Source: Escherichia coli (GTDB lineage: Bacteria > Pseudomonadota > Gammaproteobacteria > Enterobacterales > Enterobacteriaceae). Taken from it: DNA of 63,428 nt. Location of the stretch: assembly GCF_024223415.1 (NCBI RefSeq), contig NZ_CP100504.1. One strand, written 5' to 3'. The position numbers were made by a program, and so were the translations under genes. The notes under the pieces are model-generated. The model made no database searches, was not told where the DNA came from, and saw nothing but the letters and a program-made list of their open reading frames with translations. Shown piece after piece: positions 1-59,625 of this stretch. Position 1 is the first letter of the stretch. Every line of letters begins with the position of its first letter.

Positions 1-858
1 GTGACTGATCTTCAACAAACGTATTACCGCCAGGTAAAGAACCCGAATCCGGTGTTCACACCCCGTGAAGGTGCCGGAACGCTGAAGTTTTGCGAAAAAC
101 TGATGGAAAAGGCGGTGGGCTTCACCTCCCGTTTTGATTTCGCCATTCATGTGGCACACGCCCGTTCGCGTGGTCTGCGCCGGCGCATGCCGCCGGTACT
201 GCGTCGACGGGCCATTGATGCGCTGCTGCAGGGGCTGTGTTTCCACTATGACCCGCTGGCCAACCGCGTCCAGTGCTCCATCACCACACTGGCCATTGAG
301 TGCGGACTGGCGACGGAGTCTGCTGCCGGAAAACTCTCTATCACCCGTGCCACCCGCGCCCTGACGTTCCTCGCAGAGCTGGGCCTGATTACCTACCAGA
401 CGGAATATGACCCGCTTATCGGGTGCTACATTCCGACCGACATCACGTTCACACCGGCACTGTTTGCCGCTCTCGATGTGTCTGAGGTGGCGGTGGCAGC
501 TGCGCGCCGCAGTCGTGTGGAATGGGAAAACAGACAGCGCAAGAAGCAGGGACTGGATGCACTGGGTATGGATGAACTGATAGCGAAAGCCTGGCGTTTT
601 GTGCGTGAGCGTTTCCGCAGTTACCAGACAGAGCTTAAGTCCCGGGGAATAAAGCGTGCCCGTGCGCGTCGTGATGCGGACAGGGAACGTCAGGATATTG
701 TCACCCTGGTGAAACGGCAGCTGACGCGCGAAATCGCGGAAGGGCGCTTCACTGCTAATCGTGAGGCAGTAAAACGCGAAGTGGAGCGTCGTGTGAAGGA
801 GCGCATGATTCTGTCACGTAACCGTAATTACAGCCGGCTGGCCACAGCTTCCCCCTGA
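1..858 (+). CDS. repA1: IncFII replication initiator RepA1
   Basis: 285-aa ORF with GTG start at base 1; translation matches the RepA1 initiator of R100/R1-type plasmids; start overlaps the end of the tap leader peptide that begins at 63362. Confidence 0.9.
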
Positions 859-3189: not shown

Positions 3190-4422
3190 TCATGTTGCCG
3201 CCAGCGGGCGACAGATCGCCCGCAGGGCGACGGCGCTGCACAGCGGAAACAGCGCCAGCAGAAGCCAGGGATAAACCGCCTGCGGCGACGGAATGAGCGC
3301 CTGGTCAAGTAAATGACCGAGCAGTAAATTCCCGGCTAACACCGCGCACCCTCCTGCGGTGGCGAGCGCTCCGTAGTGGGCGCCCAGCGTCGACTCCTCG
3401 GCGAACAGCGGGATCAGATCCTTGGCTGCGGGCACTAACAGCATCTGGCCGAGGGTGAGCAGCGTGACAAAACCAGCCGCCGGCATTAACCGCAGCCAAC
3501 TTTCGGCGGGTGGGGCGGCGGCGAATAACGCCACGCTGGCAAAGGAAGCCGACAGCAGCAGAAAGCCCACCGGCAGGATGCGCACGGCGCCCATTCGCCG
3601 GGCGAAGCGGGCGAGAGGGAGCTGGAGGGTGATAATCAACAGCGAGGCCAGCATAAAGAGCGGCGCCAGATCCTGCTCGCGGCCGCCGGAACGTTGGATC
3701 TCCACCGGCAGAGCGAGGTAGAGTTGGTTGTAGCTCAACAGCCATGAGCTGTAGGCGAGAATAAACGCGACAAAGCGCGGCTGGCGCAAAGGCGTCCACC
3801 ATGGGACTCGTCTGCGCGTTGTTGTCGTGTGCCCGTCGGCGGGCAGACCGAAAAAGAGCACCGCCAGCGCCAGAAGAAATATTCCCGCGCCGGCGAGGGC
3901 GATATGTCGAAAGCCGATCCCGCTCAGCACGCCTCCGGCCACCGGGCCGATCACCGCTCCCAGTTCACCGCATACCGCAAACAGCGCAAACCACTCGGCG
4001 CGGCTGCGTTTCCCGTTGGCCTGGCTGTGGGTACCGGCCCGCGCCAGCAGGGCCTCTATCGACGGGGAGAACAGGGCGCCGCCGACGCCGGTCAGGCAGG
4101 CGCCAAGGATAATGGCCCACAGCGACGCCCCGCACGCCAGCAGGAGAAAACCGGCGACGCGAACGACGCAGCCGGCGAGAATGATCGCCTTAGCGCCATA
4201 GCGGTCGGCCAGCGTCCCGCCGAGGATAAACATCCCCTGTTGGGAGAAGGTACGCAGCCCGAGGATCAGGCCGATAAGTCCGCCTGAGAGCAGCATGTCG
4301 TCGCGCAGGAAGAGGGCGAGGAAAGGTACGACCGCGTAAAAGCCAATATTAAAAACGAACTGGCTTCCCAGTAACACCGGAGGCCAGAGGGTTGCCGCAG
4401 GGCGCAGGGAGAAAAGAGGCAT
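3190..4422 (-). CDS. eitD: MFS transporter, EitD-like
   Basis: Multi-pass membrane protein; likely start is the internal Met (MPLFSL) 12 nt after the upstream ATPase stop; last gene of a four-gene operon in eitABCD order. Confidence 0.55.
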   Translation of the reverse strand: MPLFSLRPAATLWPPVLLGSQFVFNIGFYAVVPFLALFLRDDMLLSGGLIGLILGLRTFSQQGMFILGGTLADRYGAKAIILAGCVVRVAGFLLLACGASLWAIILGACLTGVGGALFSPSIEALLARAGTHSQANGKRSRAEWFALFAVCGELGAVIGPVAGGVLSGIGFRHIALAGAGIFLLALAVLFFGLPADGHTTTTRRRVPWWTPLRQPRFVAFILAYSSWLLSYNQLYLALPVEIQRSGGREQDLAPLFMLASLLIITLQLPLARFARRMGAVRILPVGFLLLSASFASVALFAAAPPAESWLRLMPAAGFVTLLTLGQMLLVPAAKDLIPLFAEESTLGAHYGALATAGGCAVLAGNLLLGHLLDQALIPSPQAVYPWLLLALFPLCSAVALRAICRPLAAT

Positions 4423-4433
4423 ATCCGCCCAAC

Positions 4434-5198
4434 CTAAACGATGAAATGAATGTGCTTTTTGCCGTGGTAAGGGGAGATCTCGATTTTGGTTTTCACCCGG
4501 AAAACGTCCCACAGCAGCGCTTCGGACAAAATCTCCTCCGGCGTCCCGCTGGCGAGGATCTGCCCCTGCTGCATCACGATCAGCGAATCGCAGAACATCG
4601 CGGCATGGTTAAGATCGTGAATGGCCACAATGCTGGTTACCGGCAGCTCGCTGATCAACTGCATTAACTGCATCTGATGGTGTATATCCAGATGGTTGGT
4701 CGGCTCATCCAGCAGGATTTCGCTCGGGCTCTGCGCCAGCGCGCGGGCGATATGCACCCGCTGCCGCTCGCCGCCGGAGAGGCTTAACCATCCCTGTTCG
4801 CTTTTCTCCAGCATAGCTACCCGCTGCAGCGCGGCGGCAATCGCTTCGTCATCCTGAGCGCTCCAGTTTGAGAACGGAGAGTGGTGGGGAATGCGTCCCA
4901 GGCGCACGACGTCGCGCACCCGCATATTGGCCTCGGTCATGCCGTGTTGCTCGACGCAAGCCACGCGGCGGGCGAGCTGCTTTTTCGCCATCCGGGCGAT
5001 ATCCTGGCCGTCGAGGGTGACGCGACCTGCATCCGGGCGGCGCAGGCCCGCCAGAACGCGCAGCAGCGAGGATTTGCCGCAGCCGTTGGGCCCCAGCAGT
5101 CCGACCGTTTCGCCGCGCGGCACCCGCAGCGAGACATTATTGACGATGACCTTTTTGCCTGCCTTCCAGGTGATATTTTCAGCGCAAATACTCATCAC
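4434..5198 (-). CDS. eitC: ABC transporter ATP-binding protein (iron-siderophore type), EitC-like
   Basis: 254 aa with Walker A GPNGCGKSS, ABC signature LSGGERQR and Walker B LLDEP. Confidence 0.6.
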   Translation of the reverse strand: MMSICAENITWKAGKKVIVNNVSLRVPRGETVGLLGPNGCGKSSLLRVLAGLRRPDAGRVTLDGQDIARMAKKQLARRVACVEQHGMTEANMRVRDVVRLGRIPHHSPFSNWSAQDDEAIAAALQRVAMLEKSEQGWLSLSGGERQRVHIARALAQSPSEILLDEPTNHLDIHHQMQLMQLISELPVTSIVAIHDLNHAAMFCDSLIVMQQGQILASGTPEEILSEALLWDVFRVKTKIEISPYHGKKHIHFIV

Positions 5199-6232
5199 TT
5201 ATTCCTTGAGCGGTAGATAATCACGGCAAAGAAAGGCACCCCAACCAGGGCGGTTACTACCCCAACGGGCAGACTTTGCGGGGCAATCAGCAGGCGCGAC
5301 GCAATGTCCGCCAGTACCATCAATATCGCCCCTGCCAGCGCGCTGGCGATCAGCAACGTTCGGTGCAGCGGGCCAAAGAAGAAACGCATCACGTGCGGCA
5401 CCACCAGGCCAACAAAGCCGATTGAGCCGGCCATGCTGACGATGGTGGCGGTGATCAGCGCCGCAGTGGTGAAGAGGATCAGGCGCACGCGCGGCACAGC
5501 AATCCCCAGCGAGGCGGCGGCATCGTCGCCGAAGGTGAACGCGTCCAGCGCCCGGGCATACCACAGGCAGACCGCCAGACCCGCGAGCACCACCACGATG
5601 ACCAACTGGAATTCGGGCCAGCGGACGCCGCTGAAGCTGCCCAGCAGCCAGAACATCACATCGCGCGCCTGCTGCGCGCTGGCGGTGGTGCTGATGGTAT
5701 AGGCCGTGATGGCGTTAAATAACTGCGAGGCGGCGACGCCCGCAAGAATCGTACGCTCATTGCCGCCGCGCGCGCCGTTAGTCAGCAAGGCGACAAAGGC
5801 GAAGGCGGCGAAGGCCCCGGCAAAGGCGCCTGCCGAGAGGGAAATTGCGCCAGAGCCAAGGCCCAGCACCACGATCGACACCGCGCCGGTGGAGGCCCCG
5901 GCGGAGACGCCGAGGACGTAGGGTTCGGCGAGGGCATTCTTCAGCAAGCTTTGCAGCACGACACCGCAGATAGCGAGGCCGGCGCCGCAGCAGGCGGCGA
6001 CCAGCGCGCGGCTGAGGCGGAAATCCCAGATAACGCTCTCATAGATATGGTTGAGCGGCTCAGCGGTTAAGCCGGTTCTGTTGCTGATAGCATAAAAGAC
6101 ATTCTGCAGCGGGATGGCCAGCTCGCCAACGCTGACGCCCACAGCGATCACCAGCGCCAGCACGATCGCTGCCAGTATACACCAGCCGGTGAGCAGTATG
6201 CTGCGGCACGTCTCAATCGCGCCGACGCTCAT
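5195..6232 (-). CDS. eitB: ABC transporter permease (FecCD family), EitB-like
   Basis: 345-aa polytopic membrane protein; stop and start overlap the flanking operon genes. Confidence 0.6.
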   Translation of the reverse strand: MSVGAIETCRSILLTGWCILAAIVLALVIAVGVSVGELAIPLQNVFYAISNRTGLTAEPLNHIYESVIWDFRLSRALVAACCGAGLAICGVVLQSLLKNALAEPYVLGVSAGASTGAVSIVVLGLGSGAISLSAGAFAGAFAAFAFVALLTNGARGGNERTILAGVAASQLFNAITAYTISTTASAQQARDVMFWLLGSFSGVRWPEFQLVIVVVLAGLAVCLWYARALDAFTFGDDAAASLGIAVPRVRLILFTTAALITATIVSMAGSIGFVGLVVPHVMRFFFGPLHRTLLIASALAGAILMVLADIASRLLIAPQSLPVGVVTALVGVPFFAVIIYRSRNK

Positions 6233-8084: not shown

Positions 8085-8438
8085 TTAATTTATTAGCTTC
8101 ATCGCATTTTTTTTGGTCTCTTCATCACTTTTTTGCTCTTGTTGTGAAGAGGATTGAGTGACTATTGAAGAATTAAAATCGGCCATCTCTTTTGGAAATA
8201 GCGATCTCAATATATTCACGATATCTGAAAATGTGGTTTCTTTCGTCAGCAATTCACATAAAAGGAAAGGGGCCCTGGGATCTTGTCTGTATAAGGCCAG
8301 ACCTGCCGTCAGTGCAGCCCGGTTAAGGCGGCTGCGTTCCCCTTGCGGGATACTGTCCAGTGTATCACAAACAATTTTATCTGTTTGATTTACATCTGGA
8401 TTTAGCTTAAAGGCAATGGTTCTGCGCTTGTCCATCAT
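8085..8438 (-). CDS. parR: partition protein ParR (StbB), centromere-binding adaptor
   Basis: 117-aa product matching R1 ParR ([43 protein letters not shown]...). Confidence 0.9.
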   Translation of the reverse strand: MMDKRRTIAFKLNPDVNQTDKIVCDTLDSIPQGERSRLNRAALTAGLALYRQDPRAPFLLCELLTKETTFSDIVNILRSLFPKEMADFNSSIVTQSSSQQEQKSDEETKKNAMKLIN

Positions 8439-9400
8439 TAATTACCTATGAGATACATACCGTTAACTAAATCATATTGAGAGTTATTGGTTTTAAAAAA
8501 ACGTTCATCACGAATCTGTGTGTGTTTTTTTACTGCATCGCATATTAATTCTGCGCCACCACCTATAACCATAACATGAGTATAACCAGAAAATTCATTG
8601 AGTGTATTTAATACACGTTGCTCAAGTTTACGAAGTGCTTCATTCATTGCTTCGGTGACTATTGATATTTTGTTCTCATCATTAATTCGTTGCTTCAGAT
8701 AGTTATTATCTTTTCTGTGAATAATTATATCGTCAGCAAGATAGCTACTTCCTTTTGTTCTCGCAAGAGAAAGGGCATCTTTTACTGCAGATGTGACCAG
8801 AGATACACCAAGAGATGAGTCTCCGTATATTTTACTGATCCCCGATAATTTCCCCATTACCTGAGAAATATCTAATGTGGTGCCCCCGAGATCTATAATT
8901 AATAAAGAATCTAACTCATCCAGTTCTTGTAGAACTTCATAACCTGCCGGTATAGATTCAGGCATGACTTTTACATCTTTTATTGTGAATGTATCCCCAC
9001 CATTTAATGTAATTTTTTTCCGGAAGTTTGCTTTCTTACGCTCAATATTTTCCGTATTGGGTTGGTTATTCCTGTCGTAATACTCTGTCAGAGGAAGTGT
9101 GCAAACAATATCCACTTCGCTTACCGGCAGACCACTGGTCAGTAAGGCGTGGTGCACCGCAACGACATTAACGTCGCTGTATTGCCATGCGATATTGGTT
9201 GTGACTACAGCATCCGGGCTGATTGGATCAAATGAATACTGTTCGCTGTTCAGTGTGTAGTTAAAGACCTTTTTATCACCAAAAGAAACTGCCCACTCGC
9301 GTTTGAAGCTGTTCGGGCTAATGTGCTGTTTAATTGTTCCGTCGCTTTCCTGCCACTGTAGTTTGATGTTTGTTGAACCGTCATCAATGAATACCAACAT
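8438..9400 (-). CDS. parM: actin-like partition ATPase ParM (StbA)
   Basis: 320-aa product matching R1 ParM ([21 protein letters not shown]...). Confidence 0.9.
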
Positions 9401-12324: not shown

Positions 12325-12514
12325 TACAGGGGCAGGCGGTGGAGGCCGCCTGTCAGCCCGCGCGAAAACCCCTGGCAGGCTGACGCCTGCCGGAAGGGAA
12401 GCGGGCCACGCTGGCGCGTCGCCCGTTACCCTTCCCGTCTGTGATGTGTCTGACTCAGGAGTGTTTCTTTCTTATGTTATGGAACTGTTCCTGATGTTGT
12501 TGTTCCTTTATCTG

Positions 12515-13125
12515 CTGCTCTGATTCTGACTACTGCAGTGTTGTTCTGTCTGCCGGGCGCACCTTCGGCTCCCGGCTGCCTGGCGGCATCCGGTCGTCAG
12601 GCCCGACTCCGACAGGCAGCTGCTGGCGCACCCGCCAGTCTCCGCCGAACCCGCTGGCGCGGTTTCGGGCTGTCGCTACGGTCCGATGCGTGAAAACCCC
12701 GGGCTTGCAGCGACCGTTCCGGTCGCGCCGCCTCTGTCGCGCCGTGGCCTGCGCTCCAGGCATCCCGGCAAAAAGACGCCGGGATGTAAGGCGCAACGCC
12801 GTTTCGCAAACCGCGCTTCACGTCGTTGCTGCGGGTCCCTGCTCATTGCCTGCCGGGTGCCACACACCCGTATGAGTCCCTGTCGCCGGGGGCATAGACA
12901 GCCACAACCTGCCGCACTGACTGTCCAGGGTAAATGAACAGCCCACAAAATTTTTTACCCAAAACCCGGTAAAAAATTTTGCGTTCTGCCCAGGACAGGT
13001 GCGTCAGGCCGTGGCAGTGATGCCCCTTGCGGCGAAGGTTCTCAAACGGGTGAAGTTCATACCACAGGGAATACAGCAGCAGGTTCCCGCGAAACGTCAA
13101 AACTGCGGCTCCCGAAACTCAACGG
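12515..13125. repeat. leading-region ~620-bp direct repeat, copy 1 (Frpo/ssi-like)
   Basis: Near-identical by eye to 15867-16496 and 21269-21897; GC-rich with internal hairpins such as aaaattttttacc-(9 nt)-ggtaaaaaatttt. Confidence 0.85.
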
Positions 13126-13363
13126 GTGATGTTCTTTAAAAATCAGGATTTATTTCAGGCTCCGGCAATACGCATTTATGTGTTCTGTCAGTCATCCGGC
13201 TGGCAGGTAATGAGAACGCAGGAACAGAAGGAGGAAAACACCGGAGAACGTCAGACGCAGATATGAAAAAAGCAGGTCAGGGACCTGCTTAATCCACGCC
13301 GTAAGAATTGCGCAACCAATTTTGACGGCATTGTTAACCAATTTGTCATAAGGAGTTTCATTT

Positions 13364-15796: not shown

Positions 15797-15855
15797 CTGC
15801 TACTGCTACTGCTACTGCTACTGCTACTGCTACTGCTACTGCTACTGCTACTGCT
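15797..15855. repeat. hexanucleotide tandem repeat (CTGCTA)n, about 10 units
   Basis: ctgcta repeated in tandem immediately 5' of repeat copy 2; copies 1 and 3 have only a short unrepeated ctgct(g)ctc stretch at the equivalent position. Confidence 0.9.
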
Positions 15856-15866
15856 CTTCTTTTTCC

Positions 15867-16496
15867 TGCTGCTCTGATTCTGACTACTGCAGTGTTGTTC
15901 TGTCTGCCGGGCGCACCTTCGGCTCCCGGCTGCCTGGCGGCATCCGGTCGTCAGGCCCGACTCCGACAGGCAGCTGCTGGCGCACCTGCCAGTCTCCGCC
16001 GAACCCGCTGGCGCGGTTTCGGGCTGCCGCTACGGTCCGATGCGTGAAAACCCGGCTTGCAGCGACCGTTCCGGTCGCGCCGCCCCTGTCGCGCCGTGAC
16101 CTGCGCTCCAGGCATCCCGGCAAAAAGACGCCGGGATGTAAGGCGCAACGCCGTTTCGCAAACCGCGCTTCACGTCGTTGCGGCGGGTCCCTGCCCGTTG
16201 TTGTGTCCGGTGCCATTCACCTGTTTAAGCCCCTGTCGCCGGGGGCTGATACAGCCACAACCTGCCGCACTGACTGTCCAGGGTAAATGAACAGCCCACA
16301 AAATTTTTTACCCAAAACCCGGTAAAAAATTTTGCGTTCTGCCCAGGACAGGTGCGTCAGGCCGTGGCAGTGATGCCCCATGCGGCGAAGGTTCTCAAAC
16401 AGGTGATGGTGAATACCGGAGGGAACAAAGAGCAGGTCCCCGCAAAACGTCAAAACCGCGGCTCCCGAAACTCAACAGATGATGGGGGCTGAAAAC
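15867..16496. repeat. leading-region ~620-bp direct repeat, copy 2 (Frpo/ssi-like)
   Basis: Near-identical to copies 1 and 3; ends about 20 bp upstream of ssb. Confidence 0.85.
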
Positions 16497-16517
16497 ATCA
16501 ACAGAAGGAGACACATC

Positions 16518-17045
16518 ATGGCAGTTCGTGGCATTAACAAGGTCATTCTTGTCGGTCGTCTGGGAAAAGATCCGGAAGTCCGTTACATCCCAAACGGGGG
16601 CGCAGTGGCAAACCTGCAGGTGGCCACGTCAGAAAGCTGGCGCGACAAACAGACGGGGGAGATACGGGAGCAGACAGAATGGCATCGCGTGGTGCTGTTC
16701 GGCAAGCTCGCGGAAGTGGCTGGTGAGTATCTGCGCAAGGGCGCGCAGGTCTACATCGAAGGTCAGCTTCGCACCCGTAGCTGGGAGGATAACGGTATCA
16801 CCCGTTACGTCACCGAAATTCTTGTTAAGACCACGGGCACCATGCAGATGCTGGGACGTGCCGCAGGTACTCAGACTCAGCCGGAAGAGGCGCAACAGTT
16901 CAGCGGTCAGCCTCAGCCGGAATCACAGCCGGAACCGAAAAAAGGAGGCGCGAAAACGAAAGGCCGTGGACGTAAGGCCGCGCAGCCGGAGCCTCAGCAG
17001 CCGTCTGAACCCGCGTATGACTTCGATGACGACATTCCGTTCTAA
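16518..17045 (+). CDS. ssb: plasmid single-stranded DNA-binding protein
   Basis: Starts [23 protein letters not shown] (OB-fold SSB); Gln/Pro-rich tail ending DFDDDIPF; RBS aggaga. Confidence 0.9.
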
Positions 17046-17058
17046 CGAAAGACAGTGA

Positions 17059-17334
<276 letters not shown>

Positions 17335-17397
17335 GAGAGGTGCCGGACGGGAACGCGTCCGGCAGACATACAACCATCCCGGTCAAAGGAGAAATAT

Positions 17398-19354
17398 ATG
17401 TCAGTTACAGAGTCTAAGACAAAAACGGAGCGTAAATCCAGCCGTAAACCTGCAAAAACGCAGGAAACTGCACTGTCTGCCCTGCTGGCGCAGACGGAGG
17501 AAGTGAGCGTGCCGCTGGATTCACTGATTAAATCACCGCTGAATGTGCGCACGGTGCCGTATTCTGCGGAGTCCGTCAGTGAACTGGCTGATTCCATTAA
17601 GGGAGTCGGCCTGCTGCAGAATCTGGTTGTTCATGCCCTGCCAGGTGACCGTTACGGTGTCGCCGCAGGTGGTCGCCGACTGGCAGCACTCAACATGCTG
17701 GCAGAGCGTGACATCATTCAGGCTGACTGGCCTGTCCGCGTGAAAATTATTCCGCAGGAGCTGGCGACGGCTGCATCGATGACCGAGAACGGTCATCGTC
17801 GGGATATGCACCCTGCCGAACAGATTGCCGGATTCCGTGCAATGGCGCAGGAAGGCAAAACGCCTGCACAAATCGGTGATTTGCTGGGCTATTCACCCCG
17901 CCACGTTCAGCGAATGCTGAAACTGGCAGACCTTGCGCCTGTCATCCTCGATGCGCTGGCAGAAGACCGCATCACCACAGAACACTGTCAGGCGCTGGCG
18001 CTGGAGAACGACACCGCGCGTCAGGTGCAGGTGTTTGACGCTGCCTGTCAGTCGGGATGGGGCGGTAAACCGGATGTGCGGGTTATCCGCAATCTGATTA
18101 CGGAAAGTGAAGTGGCGGTGGCGGGGAACAGTAAATTCCGCTTCGTGGGGGCTGATGCTTTCTCGCCAGACGAACTGCGCACCGATTTGTTCAGCGACGA
18201 CGAGGGTGGCTATGTCGACCGCGTGGCGCTCGATGCTGCCCTGCTGGAAAAACTCCAGGCTGTCGCTGAACACCTTCGGGAAGCCGAAGGCTGGGAATGG
18301 TGCGCCGGACGCATGGAGCCTGTCGGTGAGTGTCGTGAGGATGCCGGAACCTACTGCTGTCTGCCGGAGCCGGAAGCGGTGCTGACGGAGGCGGAAGAAG
18401 AACGCCTGAACGAACTGATGACGCGTTACGACGCGCTGGAAAACCAGTGTGAGGAATCCGACCTGCTGGAAGCAGAAATGAAGCTGATGCGCTGCATGGC
18501 GAAGGTCAGGGCGTGGACGCCGGAGATGCGTGCCGGAAGCGGTGTCGTGGTGTCCTGGCGTTACGGTAATGTGTGTCCAGCGTGGTGTGCAGTTGCGCAG
18601 TGAAGATGACGCGGCTGACGACGCTGACCGCACGGAACAGGTGCAGGAGAAAGCATCAGTGGAGGAAATCAGTCTGCCGTTGCTGACGAAAATGTCCTCA
18701 GAGCGCACGCTGGCAGTCCAGGCGGCACTCATGCAGCAGCCGGACAAATCTCTGGCACTGGTGGCATGGACGCTCTGCCTGAATGTGTTTGGCAGCGGGG
18801 CGTACAGTAAACCAGCACAAATCAGCCTGGAATGTGAACATTATTCGCTGACCAGCGATGCGCCATCGGGGAAGGAAGGTGCCGCATTCATGGCGCTGAT
18901 TGCAGAAAAAGCCCGTCTTGCTGCCCTGTTACCGGAGGGATGGTCACGGGACATGACGACATTCCTTTCACTCAGTCAGGAGGTGCTGTTATCCCTGCTC
19001 AGTTTCTGCACCGCATGCAGCCTTAACGGTGTCCAGACCCGTGAGTGTGGTCACACGTCACGCAGTCCGCTTGACTCGCTGGAAACCGCTATCGGATTCC
19101 ACATGCGCGACTGGTGGCAGCCGACAAAAGCAAACTTCTTCGGACACCTGAAAAAGCCGCAGATTATCGCAGCCCTGAATGAGGCAGGACTGTCCGGTGC
19201 CGCACGGGACGCGGAGAAGATGAAGAAAGGTGATGCGGCTGAACATGCAGAGCACCATATGAAAGACAACCGCTGGGTTCCAGGCTGGATGTGTGCACCA
19301 CATCCACAGACAGATGCCACTGAACGCACCGATAACCTGGCTGATGCCGCCTGA
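17398..19354 (+). pseudogene. ParB-like nuclease domain protein, reading frame interrupted
   Basis: Two overlapping ORFs (17398-18603 and 18530-19354) in different frames; the frame switch maps to a gtgtgt dinucleotide run near 18575; joined length ~650 aa. Confidence 0.6.
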
Positions 19355-19408
19355 TGAACAACCACACCGCCCCGCCGGAGACGGGGCGGCAGCAAGGGAG
19401 ATACCGTG

Positions 19409-19843
19409 ATGAAAACTGAACTGACCCTGAATGCCCTGCAGTCCATGAACGCACAGGAATATGAAGATATCCGGGCTGCCGGAAGTGATGAACGCCGTGA
19501 GCTGACACACGCCGTGATGCGGGAACTGGATGCGCCGGACAACTGGACGATGAATGGCGAGTACGGCAGCGAGTTCGGCGGCTTTTTCCCCGTCCAGGTC
19601 CGTTTCACGCCTGCCCACGAACGTTTTCACCTGGCGTTATGTTCACCGGGCGATGTCTCTCAGGTCTGGGTGCTGGTTCTGGTGAATGCCGGTGGTGAGC
19701 CGTTTGCGGTGGTTCAGGTGCAGCGGCGGTTTGCACCGGAAGCTGTCAGCCATTCACTGGCACTGGCGGCGTCACTGGATGCGCAGGGGTACAGCGTTAA
19801 CGACATCATTCATATCCTGATGGCGGAAGGAGGTCAGGCATGA
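19409..19843 (+). CDS. psiB: plasmid SOS inhibition protein PsiB
   Basis: [40 protein letters not shown]... matches PsiB; RBS agggag. Confidence 0.9.
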
Positions 19844-20559
19844 GCGCACGTTCACAGGCACTGGTTCCTCTCAGCACAGAGCAACAGGCCGCATGGCGGG
19901 CGGTGGCGGAGACCGAAAAACGCCGCCATCAGGGTAACACGCTGGCTGAATATCCGTATGCGGGTGCGTTTTTCCGCTGTCTGAACGGAAGCCGGAGGAT
20001 ATCGCTGTCTGACCTGCGATTTTTCATGCCGTCCCTGACCGCAGAAGAACTGCACGGCAACCGTCTTCAGTGGCTGTATGCCATCGATGTGCTGATTGAA
20101 ACACAGGGCGAGGTCTGCCTCCTTCCCCTTCCCGGTGATGCAGCAGAGCGCTTGTTCCCGTCGGTGCGGTTTCGTGTCAGGGAACGCAGTCGCCATAAAT
20201 CCGCGCTGGTCATGCAGAAGTACAGCCGCCAGCAGGCGAGGGAGGCAGAGCAGAAAGCCCGTGCGTACCAGGCGCTGGTCGCTCAGGCTGAAATCGAACT
20301 GGCATTCCATTCGCCGGAAACAGTCGGAAGCTGGCATGCACGCTGGAGTGACCGGGTGGCAGAGCATGACCTGGAAACCCTGTTCTGGCAGTGGGGCGAG
20401 CGTTTTCCGTCACTGGCCGGAATGGAACGCTGGCAGTGGCAGGATATGCCGTTCTGGCAGGTTATTGCGGAAGCCAGTCTTGCAGCAAGAGAGGCCGGTC
20501 ACGCTGTCCGTGAGATGGAGCGGTGGATGGTGCCGAACAAACTCCGGGAGGCAGCGTGA
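19840..20559 (+). CDS. psiA: plasmid SOS inhibition protein PsiA
   Basis: 239-aa ORF overlapping the psiB stop; matches PsiA of F-like plasmids. Confidence 0.85.
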
Positions 20560-20997: not shown

Positions 20998-21268
20998 CAA
21001 CCTGGAGGCGGGCGCAGGCCCGCCTTTTCAGGACTGATGCTGGTCTGACTACTGAAGCGCCTTTATAAAGGGGCTGCTGGTTCGCCGGTAGCCCCTTTCT
21101 CCTTGCTGATGTTGTACGGGCATGAACAACCTGACTTCAGGAAGGTCGTTTCCCTTCAGGAACGGGGATGAACGCGCGCCTGCGGCGCCCGTTCTTTTCC
21201 CCCGCCTTCTCTGGTTATGGCCTGTCAGAAATCACATCACCTTCCCTGTGATTATTCTCTTTTTCTTC

Positions 21269-21897
21269 CTGCTCTGATTCTGACTACTGCAGTGTTGTCC
21301 TGTCTGCCGGCGCACCTTCGGCTCCCGGCTGCCTGGCGGCATCCGGTCGTCAGGCCCGACTCCGACAGGCAGCTGCTGGCGCACCTGCCAGTCTCCGCCG
21401 AACCCGCTGGCGCGGTTTCGGGCTGTCGCTACGGTCCGATGCGTGAAAACCCCGGGCTTGCAGCGACCGTTCCGGTCGCGCCGCCTCTGTCGCGCCGTGG
21501 CCTGCGCTCCAGGCATCCCGGCAAAAAGACGCCGGGATGTAAGGCGCAACGCCGTTTCGCAAACCGCGCTTCACGTCGTTGCGGCGGGTCCCTGCCCGTT
21601 GTTGTGTCCGGTGCCATTCACCTGTTTAAGCCCCTGTCGCCGGGGGCTGATACAGCCACAACCTGCCGCACTGACTGTCCAGGGTAAATGAACAGCCCAC
21701 AAAATTTTTTACCCAAAACCCGGTAAAAAATTTTGCGTTCTGCCCAGGACAGGTGCGTCAGGCCGTGGCAGTGATGCCCCTTGCGGCGAAGGTTCTCAAA
21801 CAGGTGATGGTGAATACCGGAGGGAACAAAGAGCAGGTCCCCGCAAAACGTCAAAACCGCGGCTCCCGAAACTCAACAGATGATGGGGGCTGAAAAC
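21269..21897. repeat. leading-region ~620-bp direct repeat, copy 3 (Frpo/ssi-like)
   Basis: Near-identical to copies 1 and 2; ends about 20 bp upstream of the ORF at 21918. Confidence 0.85.
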
Positions 21898-21917
21898 CAG
21901 AGAGAGGAGAAAGCTGG

Positions 21918-22205
21918 ATGAGTACCCGAAATATCCACGTTAACACCGCGTCGTACACGATTCTTGTTGCCGGGAGGGAAAAAAACACCGGGGAAGAGTG
22001 GGACGTCCTGGAATTCAGCAGCCTGACTGAGCTGAAAAAATATCGCAAAAGCCACCCGGAAAAGATGGCCTTCAGCTATAGCTACGCGCTCAGCCGGGGT
22101 GTGGATACGCAGTTCCGCCATATCAACATTGCGGAAGCCGATCACTTCAAACAGTTCCTGCGTCAGATTAAGCGTGCCGGCCTCGATATCCGGGCGATCT
22201 GCTGA
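21918..22205 (+). CDS. hypothetical leading-region protein
   Basis: 95-aa ORF with RBS gaggaga; first gene downstream of repeat copy 3. Confidence 0.5.
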   Translation: MSTRNIHVNTASYTILVAGREKNTGEEWDVLEFSSLTELKKYRKSHPEKMAFSYSYALSRGVDTQFRHINIAEADHFKQFLRQIKRAGLDIRAIC

Positions 22206-41264: not shown

Positions 41265-41513
41265 ATGATGAAGGTCATATTCACGTCGAACCGTTTTATT
41301 GATTTTCTTATCCGGCTTTTGATTACAGCGATTGTCATTTCCCCGGTAATTATCTGGTCGTGGGATACGGTAAAAGAAACCACGGCAGACGGGATGCCTG
41401 CCGCTGCTTTCGTTATCCTTTACTCCGGTGTGCTCCTGTTTATTCTGTATTTTTGTTTTTCTGCCCTGACCTGCAGAAAACCGATGAAAGAAAAAATGAT
41501 GAAAGGAATGAAG
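41265..41513 (+). CDS. trbE: TrbE (small membrane protein), frame runs into traF without a stop
   Basis: MMKVIFTSNRFIDFLIRLLITAIVISPVIIW... two TM segments; RBS ggggga; no stop codon before the TraF start in the same frame. Confidence 0.6.
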
Positions 41514-42257
41514 ATGAATAAAGCATTACTGCCACTGTTACTCTGCTGCTTTATTTTTCCGGCGTCAGGGAAAGATGCAGGCTGGCAGTGGTATAACGAG
41601 AAAATAAATCCGAAGGAAAAAGAAAATAAACCTGTACCTGCAGCCCCCCGTCAGGAGCCGGATATTATGCAGAAACTGGCCGCGCTGCAGACGGCAACAA
41701 AGCGGGCGCTGTACGAAGCCATTCTGTATCCCGGCGTGGATAATTTTGTGAAATATTTCCGGCTGCAGAATTACTGGACTCAGCAGGCCGGGCTTTTCAC
41801 CATGAGTGCTAAAAAAGCTATGCTGGCACATCCCGAACTGGACTATAACCTGCAGTACAGCCATTACAACGGCACGGTCCGGAACCAGCTGGCGGCAGAC
41901 CAGGCGCAGCAGCGACAGGCCATTGCGAAACTGGCTGAACACTACGGCATCATGTTTTTTTACCGGGGGCAGGACCCCATCGACGGGCAACTGGCGCAGG
42001 TCATTAATGGCTTCCGGGATACCTATGGTCTGAGTGTTATTCCCGTTTCCGTGGATGGCGTGATTAATCCGCTGTTGCCGGATTCCCGGACTGACCAGGG
42101 GCAGGCGCAGCGCCTCGGCGTGAAATATTTCCCGGCCATGATGCTGGTAGACCCGAAACAGGGCAGTGTTCGCCCGTTATCATACGGCTTTATTTCGCAG
42201 GATGACCTGGCAAAACAATTCCTGAACGTTTCTGAAGACTTTAAACCGAATTTTTAA
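41514..42257 (+). CDS. traF: pilus assembly protein TraF (thioredoxin-like fold)
   Basis: 247 aa from MNKALLPLLLCCFIFPASG (signal peptide) with RBS aaagga upstream; matches TraF. Confidence 0.85.
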   Translation: MNKALLPLLLCCFIFPASGKDAGWQWYNEKINPKEKENKPVPAAPRQEPDIMQKLAALQTATKRALYEAILYPGVDNFVKYFRLQNYWTQQAGLFTMSAKKAMLAHPELDYNLQYSHYNGTVRNQLAADQAQQRQAIAKLAEHYGIMFFYRGQDPIDGQLAQVINGFRDTYGLSVIPVSVDGVINPLLPDSRTDQGQAQRLGVKYFPAMMLVDPKQGSVRPLSYGFISQDDLAKQFLNVSEDFKPNF

Positions 42258-50785: not shown

Positions 50786-52777
50786 ATGAGTTTTAACGCA
50801 AAGGATATGACCCAGGGCGGTCAGATTGCGTCCATGCGTATCCGCATGTTCAGCCAGATCGCCAATATCATGCTTTACTGCCTGTTTATTTTTTTCTGGA
50901 TACTCGTTGGTCTGATTTTATGGGTAAAAATAAGCTGGCAGACGTTTGTGAACGGCTGTATTTACTGGTGGTGTACCACGCTGGAAGGCATGCGGGATTT
51001 AATCAAGTCCCAGCCAGTATATGAGATTCAGTATTACGGCAAAACCTTCCGGATGAACTCTGCCCAGGTACTGCATGATAAATATATGATCTGGTGCGGT
51101 GAGCAGCTATGGTCCGCATTCGTTCTGGCGTCTGTCGTGGCCCTGGTTATTTGCCTGATCACCTTCTTTGTTGTCTCCTGGATTCTGGGGCGTCAGGGTA
51201 AACAACAGAGCGAAAATGAAGTCACAGGTGGTCGTCAGCTGACAGACAATCCGAAAGACGTTGCCCGGATGCTGAAAAAAGACGGCAAGGACTCCGATAT
51301 CCGGATTGGCGACCTGCCGATTATCCGGGATTCCGAAATCCAGAACTTCTGTCTGCACGGCACGGTCGGGGCCGGTAAGTCGGAGGTTATCCGTCGTCTG
51401 GCCAACTACGCCCGTCAGCGCGGTGATATGGTGGTGATTTATGACCGTTCAGGGGAATTTGTTAAAAGTTACTATGATCCCTCCATCGATAAAATCCTGA
51501 ATCCGCTGGATGCCCGCTGTGCCGCATGGGATTTGTGGAAGGAGTGTCTGACACAGCCGGATTTTGATAATACCGCAAATACTCTGATCCCTATGGGTAC
51601 AAAAGAGGACCCGTTCTGGCAGGGTTCAGGACGTACCATTTTTGCGGAAGCGGCGTACCTGATGCGTAATGACCCCAACCGCAGCTACAGCAAACTGGTG
51701 GACACACTGCTTTCCATCAAAATCGAAAAACTGCGTACCTTCCTGCGTAATTCTCCGGCGGCCAACCTGGTGGAAGAGAAAATTGAGAAAACGGCGATTT
51801 CCATCCGTGCTGTGCTGACCAACTACGTGAAAGCCATCCGTTACCTGCAGGGGATTGAGCATAACGGTGAGCCCTTCACCATACGTGACTGGATGCGTGG
51901 TGTCCGGGAAGATCAGAAAAACGGCTGGCTGTTTATTTCGTCGAACGCCGACACCCATGCCTCCCTGAAGCCGGTGATCTCCATGTGGCTGTCCATTGCC
52001 ATTCGTGGTCTGCTGGCAATGGGAGAAAACCGTAACCGTCGTGTGTGGTTTTTCTGTGATGAGTTACCCACGTTACACAAACTGCCGGACCTGGTGGAGA
52101 TCCTGCCGGAAGCCCGTAAGTTCGGTGGCTGTTATGTGTTTGGTATCCAGTCCTATGCCCAGCTGGAAGATATCTACGGTGAGAAAGCGGCGGCCACGCT
52201 GTTTGACGTCATGAACACCCGTGCTTTTTTCCGTTCCCCGAGCCATAAGATTGCAGAGTTCGCTGCCGGTGAGATTGGTGAGAAAGAGCACCTGAAAGCC
52301 AGCGAGCAGTATTCCTACGGTGCTGACCCGGTACGTGACGGGGTATCGACCGGTAAGGATATGGAGCGTCAGACGCTGGTCAGTTATTCCGACATTCAGT
52401 CTCTGCCGGATCTGACCTGCTATGTCACTCTGCCCGGACCGTATCCGGCAGTAAAACTCTCCCTGAAATATCAGGCACGACCGAAGGTCGCTCCGGAGTT
52501 TATTCCGCGTGACATCAACCCGGAAATGGAGAACCGTCTGAGTGCCGTACTTGCCGCAAGGGAAGCAGAAGGTCGTCAGATGGCCAGCCTCTTTGAACCG
52601 GAGGTTGCCTCCGGAGAAGATGTGACTCAGGCTGAACAGCCACAACAGCCACAACAGCCACAACAGCCACAACAGCCACAACAGCCACAACAGCCGGTGT
52701 CTCCTGCCATCAACGATAAGAAGTCAGATTCAGGTGTGAATGTTCCGGCAGGGGGATCGAGCAGGAGCTGGAAATGA
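50786..52777 (+). CDS. traD: type IV coupling protein TraD
   Basis: 663 aa with N-terminal TM segments, Walker A GTVGAGKS and a C-terminal QPQ repeat tail. Confidence 0.95.
52637..52690. repeat. 9-bp tandem repeat (cagccacaa)n inside traD
   Basis: About six tandem units encoding the (QPQ)n tract in the TraD C-terminal tail. Confidence 0.9.
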
Positions 52778-52974
52778 AACCGGAAGAAGAGATGGAACAG
52801 CAACTGCCACCCGGGATCAGTGAATCCGGTGAAGTGGTGGATATGGCCGCTTATGAGGCATGGCAACAGGAAAATCATCCGGACATCCAGCAGCAGATGC
52901 AGCGTCGTGAAGAGGTGAACATTAATGTGCACCGGGAGCGTGGGGAGGATGTTGAGCCGGGAGATGATTTCTGA
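52774..52974 (+). CDS. small acidic hypothetical protein between traD and traI
   Basis: 66-aa ORF overlapping the traD stop and ending exactly at the traI start. Confidence 0.45.
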
Positions 52975-59064: not shown

Positions 59065-59625
59065 ATGACAGAGCAGAAGCGACCGGTACTGACACTGAAG
59101 CGGAAAACGGAAGGGGAGACGCCTGTCCGCAGCCGGAAAACCATCATCAATGTCACCACGCCACCAAAGTGGAAGGTGAAAAAGCAGAAGCTGGCCGAGA
59201 AAGCAGCCCGGGAAGCAGAGCTGGCGGCAAAAAAAGCGCAGGCCAGACAGGCACTGTCCATTTATCTGAACCTGCCCACGCTGGATGAGGCCGTGAATAC
59301 CCTGAAACCCTGGTGGCCGGGATTGTTTGACGGTGACACGCCCCGGCTTCTGGCCTGCGGTATCCGGGACGTGTTACTGGAAGACGTGGCGCAGCGGAAT
59401 ATCCCGCTCTCGCATAAAAAACTGCGCAGGGCGCTGAAGGCCATCACCCGTTCAGAAAGCTATCTGTGTGCCATGAAAGCCGGTGCCTGCCGGTATGACA
59501 CGGAAGGGTATGTGACGGAGCATATTTCTCAGGAGGAGGAAGCGTATGCGGCAGCGCGTCTGGATAAAATCCGCCGCCAGAACCGGATAAAGGCAGAACT
59601 TCAGGCCGTGCTTGATGAGAAATAA
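59065..59625 (+). CDS. finO: fertility inhibition protein FinO (intact)
   Basis: 186 aa starting [14 protein letters not shown]...; matches FinO; uninterrupted. Confidence 0.9.

Follow-up and report, generated by a model that had tools for sequence, protein, structure and literature searches.

The window analyzed here is a 63,428-nucleotide (nt) stretch of Escherichia coli DNA (NCBI RefSeq assembly GCF_024223415.1, contig NZ_CP100504.1) that, over its full length, has the appearance of a complete conjugative plasmid of the F-like IncFII type. In its leading region, between ssb and a DUF905 gene on one side and psiB–psiA on the other, which is the position by which members of the Pbf (ParB fusion) group are recognized, lie two open reading frames, ORF1 and ORF2 (Table 1). 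They overlap by 74 nt, with ORF2 in the +1 frame relative to ORF1. The original prediction, made without database searches, had described these two frames and had proposed a ParB-like gene of about 650 amino acids (aa) between ssb and psiB. Coordinates, overlap, and frame were confirmed, as were the neighboring genes, and the restored protein is 652 aa long. The comparisons described below indicate that the locus very probably represents a real and recent slipped-strand frameshift allele of this known leading-region gene, and hence an ordinary pseudogene, which possibly leaves a 401-aa product.

Compared with intact 1959-nt homologs, the window gene is short by exactly 2 nt, equivalent to one TG unit, after position 18569. 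In a three-way alignment of the window with the alleles of plasmids pMbl488 (IncK2/Z) and p1522kTc1 (IncFIA by PLSDB replicon typing), the TG run is the sole difference in length; it reads AACGTATGTGTCC in pMbl488, AATGTGTGTGTCC in p1522kTc1, and AATGTGTGTCC in the window at 18568–18578. The frame change had been predicted to lie in a gtgtgt run near 18575, and the alignment places the deficit in the tract 18570–18576, within which the lost TG unit can be assigned only ambiguously; the short repeat run that lost one TG is TGTGTGTG. In intact relatives, the 8 nt from an AAY codon to CCAGCG are GTGTGTGT, GTATGTGT, or GTGTGTAT. The loss of one TG out of (TG)4 is a signature of slipped-strand mispairing and supports this process as the origin of the allele, a mechanism that we infer from the sequence of the tract.

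When the TG is put back, an uninterrupted ParB-like ORF of 652 aa results, with no other stop. Because of this, and because the restored gene shares 95–98% nucleotide identity with thousands of annotated genes, ORF1 and ORF2 are halves of one gene rather than a chance arrangement. The native reading ...SWRYGNVCVQRGVQLRSEDD... becomes ...SWRYGNVCPAWCAVAQ followed by a stop codon in ORF1, and the native sequence is picked up again in ORF2 at ...VQRGVQLRSEDD. With the frame broken at codon 391, the single polypeptide of about 650 aa that defines Pbf proteins is not encoded. As judged from sequence, the window gene is a disrupted Pbf member by descent, in which all of the coding sequence is still there.

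The intact state of the gene is widespread. A megablast search of PLSDB with 17398–19354 matched more than 5000 plasmid records at the identity given above; among the matches listed, the span is 1959 nt (1926 nt where the alignment begins at query position 34), 2 nt above that of the window. The same picture was obtained for RefSeq complete E. coli, with near-full-length matches in 4008 records, and nearly all of the matches listed from either collection are annotated as a single coding sequence (CDS). At a cut-off of E<1e-30, an exhaustive HMMER search returned 1206 cluster representatives. Full-length homologs, about 600–770 aa in size, can be aligned with the query along its entire length at identities as low as about 30%, so that the single-polypeptide architecture is deeply conserved. 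Across alleles, the ratio of non-synonymous to synonymous substitution rates (dN/dS) is 0.10–0.19 for the N-terminal part and 0.10–0.30 for the C-terminal part, values that point to purifying selection on both halves of the gene. In a 63-sequence alignment, W574, K610, A618, W627, and P629 are nearly invariant C-terminal residues. Together with the low dN/dS, they argue that the part lost from ORF1 is normally functional. In the metagenome sample, about 1 in 10 pbf copies is disrupted, at various other positions, and some of these may be assembly errors. An apparent C-terminal-only ORF (P0060, in locus L127) was considered as a natural split form and rejected, as it carries an internal deletion (residues 167–377) and a frameshift and is another pseudogene.

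The shortened tract was searched for in PLSDB (72,556 plasmids), RefSeq E. coli (20,395 records), and metagenome contigs. With a 101-nt query around the tract, none of the 4825 matching PLSDB records and none of the 3375 matching RefSeq E. coli records reached 99% identity; the best matches were 101/103, with identical flanks and the extra TG present. Although the BLAST low-complexity filter was on, this query aligned normally across the tract. With a 40-nt query specific to the junction, for which intact alleles offer no seed, neither PLSDB nor RefSeq E. coli gave a match, and a degenerate junction pattern found no (TG)3 carrier in the metagenome contigs. There, a variable-gap pattern recovered 120 loci, in every one of which the tract is 8 nt long and none of which has the deletion. 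These comprise GTGTGTGT in 57 cases, GTATGTGT in 50, and GTGTGTAT in 13, so that the TG run is interrupted in 63 of the 120 sampled alleles (GTATGTGT or GTGTGTAT).

A second carrier was found by exact-sequence look-up of the 401-aa ORF1 product, which is NCBI entry SRA12207.1, "ParB-like nuclease [Escherichia coli]", encoded on E. coli contig UDHK01000021.1 of draft assembly GCA_900482235.1. Against window positions 17001–19278, this contig shows 0 mismatches over 2126 aligned nt, the (TG)3 tract included, and thus specifies the same product from the same allele. Its upstream flank is different, with 98.1% identity (119 mismatches) and a divergent ssb allele that is about 90% identical; the contig lacks a DUF3560 or methyltransferase gene upstream, and its antirestriction region is duplicated. 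Because the flanks differ clearly, the contig belongs to a different plasmid. The frameshift allele is thus present on two backbones that differ from each other, and a recombination breakpoint lies close to the 3' end of ssb. UDHK01000021.1 has an additional 152-nt deletion, corresponding to window positions 18951–19102 and bordered on both sides by ACATG direct repeats, in the out-of-frame part. Such a deletion is what would be expected of sequence that is free of selection. It had been stated beforehand that a broken gene would be contradicted by related plasmids in which two separate proteins are encoded with these boundaries; this holds only in a trivial sense, as one contig shares the ORF1 boundary by descent and its ORF2 is hit by the 152-nt deletion.

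The restored gene is a mosaic. Nucleotides 1–300 are identical to the pMbl488 allele, and nt 450–1959 differ from the p1522kTc1 allele at 6 positions. The part that follows the frameshift, represented by ORF2, is 99.5% identical to the intact allele of NZ_MW800637.1, from which it is separated by 4 changes in 785 nt, of which 2 are synonymous and 2 non-synonymous. Because so few differences have accumulated, the frameshift is recent, and the window's own post-frameshift sequence does not yet show decay.

ORF1 encodes native residues 1–391, followed by 10 out-of-frame residues (..NVCPAWCAVAQ) and the TGA stop. Its N-terminal part matches Pfam ParB_N (PF02195; residues 38–131, 32.8 bits, cut-off 26.3) and HTH_ParB (PF17762; residues 136–222, 35 bits, cut-off 22.6), as well as NCBIfam TIGR00180 (65.6 bits, cut-off 58.45). 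The ParB arginine motif (GxxRxxA) is present as GGRRLAAL, of which G91 and R94 are invariant in 63 homologs. In a phmmer search, the N-terminal 200 or so residues matched Spo0J (1vz0; E 2.6e-17), and in Foldseek the predicted N-terminal fold resembled ParB, Noc, Spo0J, and KorB at E 1e-9 to 1e-6. The description of the gene as encoding a ParB-like nuclease-domain protein was therefore upheld for its ParB-like part, whereas "nuclease" is an annotation label only; the N terminus consists of ParB/Spo0J/Noc/KorB N-terminal and HTH domains, putatively of the cytidine triphosphate (CTP)-binding type.

An AlphaFold2 model of the restored protein (mean predicted local distance difference test score, 89.6) suggests a ParB_N domain (about 35–135), an HTH domain (about 139–220), a middle alpha/beta domain (about 225–400) that ends in a beta-hairpin with strands 382–388 and 391–400, an acidic linker of low confidence (about 403–425), and an all-helical C-terminal domain (about 427–648). 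ORF1 keeps ParB_N, HTH, and most of the middle domain, and lacks the last beta-strand, the acidic linker, and the whole C-terminal helical domain. These missing elements, native residues 391–652, are encoded by ORF2, which has no match in Pfam or NCBIfam. For the C-terminal domain (restored residues ~427–648, window 18677–19354), no Pfam or NCBIfam model and no fold relative in the PDB were found, and only weak SAP and Rho-N-like local matches were obtained. A natural N-terminal-only homolog of 441 aa (P0061; 41% identity; locus L126, positions 4001–5326, JAOPDJ010000015.1) stops just past the acidic linker; the genes that come after it are hok and one for a T4 coupling protein. The collection contains this homolog in 87 index blocks, and it is common in another plasmid lineage, which suggests that the N-terminal module is an autonomous unit. 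P0061 has the final strand of the middle domain (residues 391–400), which the 401-aa ORF1 product does not.

The gene, and the tolerance of its loss, are already known. It has been named pbf for the 652-aa ParB fusion of pMccB17, homologous to orf652 of F, which was described by Manwaring et al. in 1999 (PMC10912980). As yfjB of F, it shares transcription from the single-strand promoter Frpo2 with ssb, yfjA, psiB, and psiA, and its product is made transiently in new transconjugants; the F genes downstream of Frpo2 seem dispensable in plating assays (PMC9849209). As parB2 of pED208, it encodes a protein for which translocation of a Cre–ParB2 fusion through the type IV secretion system (T4SS) was observed, and when parB2 was deleted, no change in pilus production, in transfer of the plasmid, or in SOS induction could be detected (PMC8406263). 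In R100 (NR1), Tn10 is inserted in this leading-region parB-like gene (PMC2797631).

The window copy resembles pbf/orf652/yfjB/parB2 in its position between ssb/DUF905 and psiB (PMC10912980, PMC8406263), its nucleotide identity of 95–98% to 652-aa genes, its ParB_N and HTH N terminus with a C terminus lacking a known domain, and its location downstream of an Frpo2-type repeat. It differs from them in the 2-nt deletion at codon 391 and in its mosaic sequence. R100 offers the closest precedent for the disruption, as this gene has been inactivated naturally in an IncFII plasmid that is fully conjugative (PMC2797631), although by transposon insertion and not by a dinucleotide slippage frameshift. 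Because R100 is fully conjugative with an inactivated copy, loss of the gene can be taken to be tolerated. With the CTP-dependent DNA-clamp family of ParB, Spo0J, Noc, and KorB, the window protein shares the predicted N-terminal fold and the arginine motif. Unlike in that family, no ParA gene is adjacent in the window, where the neighbors are ssb, the DUF905 gene, psiB, and psiA and partition is provided by parMR; the Pbf protein has an extra middle domain and a helical C-terminal domain of about 230 aa without a solved relative; and its gene is expressed transiently in new transconjugants and the protein is translocated through the T4SS (PMC9849209, PMC8406263). A 2026 preprint on leading-region processing uses ParB as a microscopy tool only and contains nothing on this gene.

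Based on these data, the best explanation, and a very probable one, is that slipped-strand mispairing took one TG unit out of a (TG)4 tract. Translation from the ATG at 17398 now stops at the TGA at 18601–18603, which would yield a 401-aa protein, and the remaining 750 nt are left out of frame and seem to be in decay. The plasmid would tolerate the loss because laboratory transfer and maintenance do not depend on the gene.

Several observations weigh against this model. The 401-aa product retains the ParB_N and HTH domains, and its loss of function is presumed. Given the widespread 441-aa N-terminal-only homolog, the short form could, by analogy, retain activity. ORF2 has weak potential starts at GTG 18530, with a GGAG motif 4 nt upstream, and at ATG 18569, which makes some separate translation of the C-terminal module possible. 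The independence of UDHK01000021.1 from the window is judged by the divergence of the flanks, not by metadata. Finally, small indels in traD (G6 to G5) and trbE (4 nt) could hint at imperfect sequence.

This last point bears on the question of whether the plasmid in reality carries (TG)4 and an unbroken 652-aa gene, the TG having been lost in sequencing or assembly. Such an error would be in keeping with the absence of the allele from the plasmid, E. coli, and metagenome collections and with the presence of the other two indels in conserved genes, one of them in the traD G homopolymer. In a frame test of the approximately 65 CDSs shared with pKP04CTXM, internal stops were found in pbf only; the traD and trbE indels were overlooked by that test and came to light on inspection of the alignments. 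They are not good evidence of a bad sequence, as the traD G5 allele recurs in at least 7 other records. A dinucleotide loss from a 4-unit tract is not a typical platform artifact, and thousands of (TG)4 alleles have been sequenced on all platforms without it. Two different plasmids, independently assembled and with flanks that are 2–10% different, share the identical allele, and a sequencing error is for this reason very unlikely. Regulated slippage is more improbable still. On this reading the TG tract would be a phase-variation switch, or a programmed +1/–2 ribosomal or transcriptional frameshift site from which full-length protein is still made; the frame change does lie within a dinucleotide repeat, and the 74-nt overlap would let a +1 shift produce a near-native fusion. 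However, the tract has just 3–4 units (3 here, 4 in intact genes) where a long uninterrupted tract would be expected, only 57 of the 120 metagenome tracts are a pure TG run, and neither the 4825 plasmid and 3375 E. coli records nor the 120 metagenome loci showed any polymorphism in tract length. Phase variation was accordingly rejected, with 120 of 120 metagenome tracts at 8 nt and no variation in repeat number. The homologs are all in one frame, so that the two-frame arrangement is not conserved, and no slippery or stimulatory motif is evident in 18530–18603. Of the three explanations offered originally, a pseudogene, a slippage site, or a sequencing error, the first thus stands, together with slippage as the origin of the lesion, whereas recurrent or programmed slippage is at odds with the invariant tract and an error with the independent copy.

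A functional split gene, in which ORF1 and a re-initiated ORF2 (from GTG 18530 or ATG 18569) both work or the short N-terminal form alone is functional, is improbable, if less so than an error. The break falls just about 10 residues ahead of the low-confidence acidic linker that, in the model, separates two confidently folded modules, and a natural 441-aa N-terminal-only homolog occurs in many contigs. GTG 18530 is preceded, at a distance of 4 nt, by the GGAG motif, and ORF2 has remained intact in the window, with 99.5% identity to a functional allele. The recency of the event, with 4 differences, accounts for the intact ORF2, and in the sole other carrier of the allele a deletion of 152 nt breaks the frame of ORF2. 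ORF1 also lacks the last strand of the middle domain (391–400), which the natural short form retains, and the one-polypeptide architecture is conserved in full-length homologs across the 1206 cluster representatives. A related and decidedly improbable possibility is that the frameshift converts a two-module ParB-fusion protein to a short form like the 441-aa homologs, with the C-terminal module perhaps re-initiated separately. If true, it would alter what is delivered to, or expressed in, new recipients by the plasmid, or lower psiB and psiA expression through polarity.

If the locus is, as we consider very probable, a recent slipped-strand pseudogene, its significance is small, as it adds one more disrupted copy of an accessory gene whose loss is known to be tolerated. 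Its use lies in functional work on pbf/yfjB/parB2, for which it provides a natural truncation allele that separates the ParB, HTH, and middle part from the conserved C-terminal domain. For annotation, 17398–19354 should be treated as one frameshifted pseudogene and not as two genes.

Table 1. Coordinates of the frameshifted gene, its neighborhood, and landmarks of the window.
Feature	Position	Strand	Description	Basis
ORF1	17398–18603	+	401 aa; ATG start, TGA stop at 18601–18603	ORF list
ORF2	18530–19354	+	274 aa; GTG start 18530, in-frame ATG 18569	ORF list
Whole frameshifted pbf/orf652/yfjB/parB2 homolog	17398–19354	+	ParB-fusion leading-region gene; 1957 nt, 1959 when intact	
TGTGTGT tract	18570–18576	+	(TG)3 plus T; site of 2-nt deletion	Alignment with pMbl488 and p1522kTc1
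Plasmid ssb	16479–17045	+	Start annotated in relatives, 16518	
DUF905 gene	17074–17334	+	yfjA/yubL homolog; start annotated in relatives, 17101	
psiB	19406/19409–19843	+	Next gene downstream of pbf	Comparison with annotated relatives
psiA	19840–20559	+		Comparison with annotated relatives
Frpo2-type repeat	15838–16499	.	Single-strand promoter region upstream of the ssb–yfjA–pbf–psiB–psiA cluster	Direct-repeat families D1–D3
repA	1–858			Window layout
parMR (parM/parR)	8085–9400		Partition system of the plasmid	Window layout
tra region	24365–59010			Window layout
finO	59065–59625			Window layout

Further features were noted in the vicinity of the gene and elsewhere in the window. Within 18500–19400, a search of the + strand gave neither a sigma-70-like promoter nor a terminator. 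Between the pbf stop codon and psiB, at 19365–19391, lies a perfect GC-rich hairpin of 12 pairs, CACCGCCCCGCCGGAGACGGGGCGGCA, without a T-tail on the + strand. The premature stop in ORF1 could conceivably exert polarity on psiB.

Two genes of the tra region carry the indels mentioned above. In traD (50786–52966), the G6-to-G5 change in the G run at 52751–52755 ends the ORF at 52777, after 663 aa, so that some 60 residues are lost from the C terminus; among them is the ...GDDF tail, still readable in another frame to about 52966. In work on pED208, the C-terminal tail of TraD has been read as the TraM-interacting end (PMC8406263). At least 7 PLSDB records, none of which has an annotated traD CDS, contain a traD allele of the same length (120/121 identity). 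In trbE (41265–42257), a 4-nt deletion after 41469, near the 3' end, relative to pKP04CTXM alters the tail of TrbE and brings trbE in frame with traF, giving one ORF of 330 aa.

The leading region also contains three copies of a repeat of about 650 nt, at 12484–13146, 15838–16499, and 21237–21900, with segments that are 66–99% identical. They lie upstream of the DUF3560/methyltransferase genes, ssb, and a ygeA-like ORF (21918–22205), respectively. These repeats are the counterparts of the single-strand promoter repeats known from F as Frpo/ssi (PMC9849209, PMC10912980), and a promoter function would be presumed for them here by that likeness. Positions 15797–15855, just past the methyltransferase gene and where the Frpo2-type repeat starts, are occupied by (CTGCTA) x 9.8, a perfect tandem repeat of a hexanucleotide that gives rise to spurious poly-Leu and poly-Ala-Thr ORFs.

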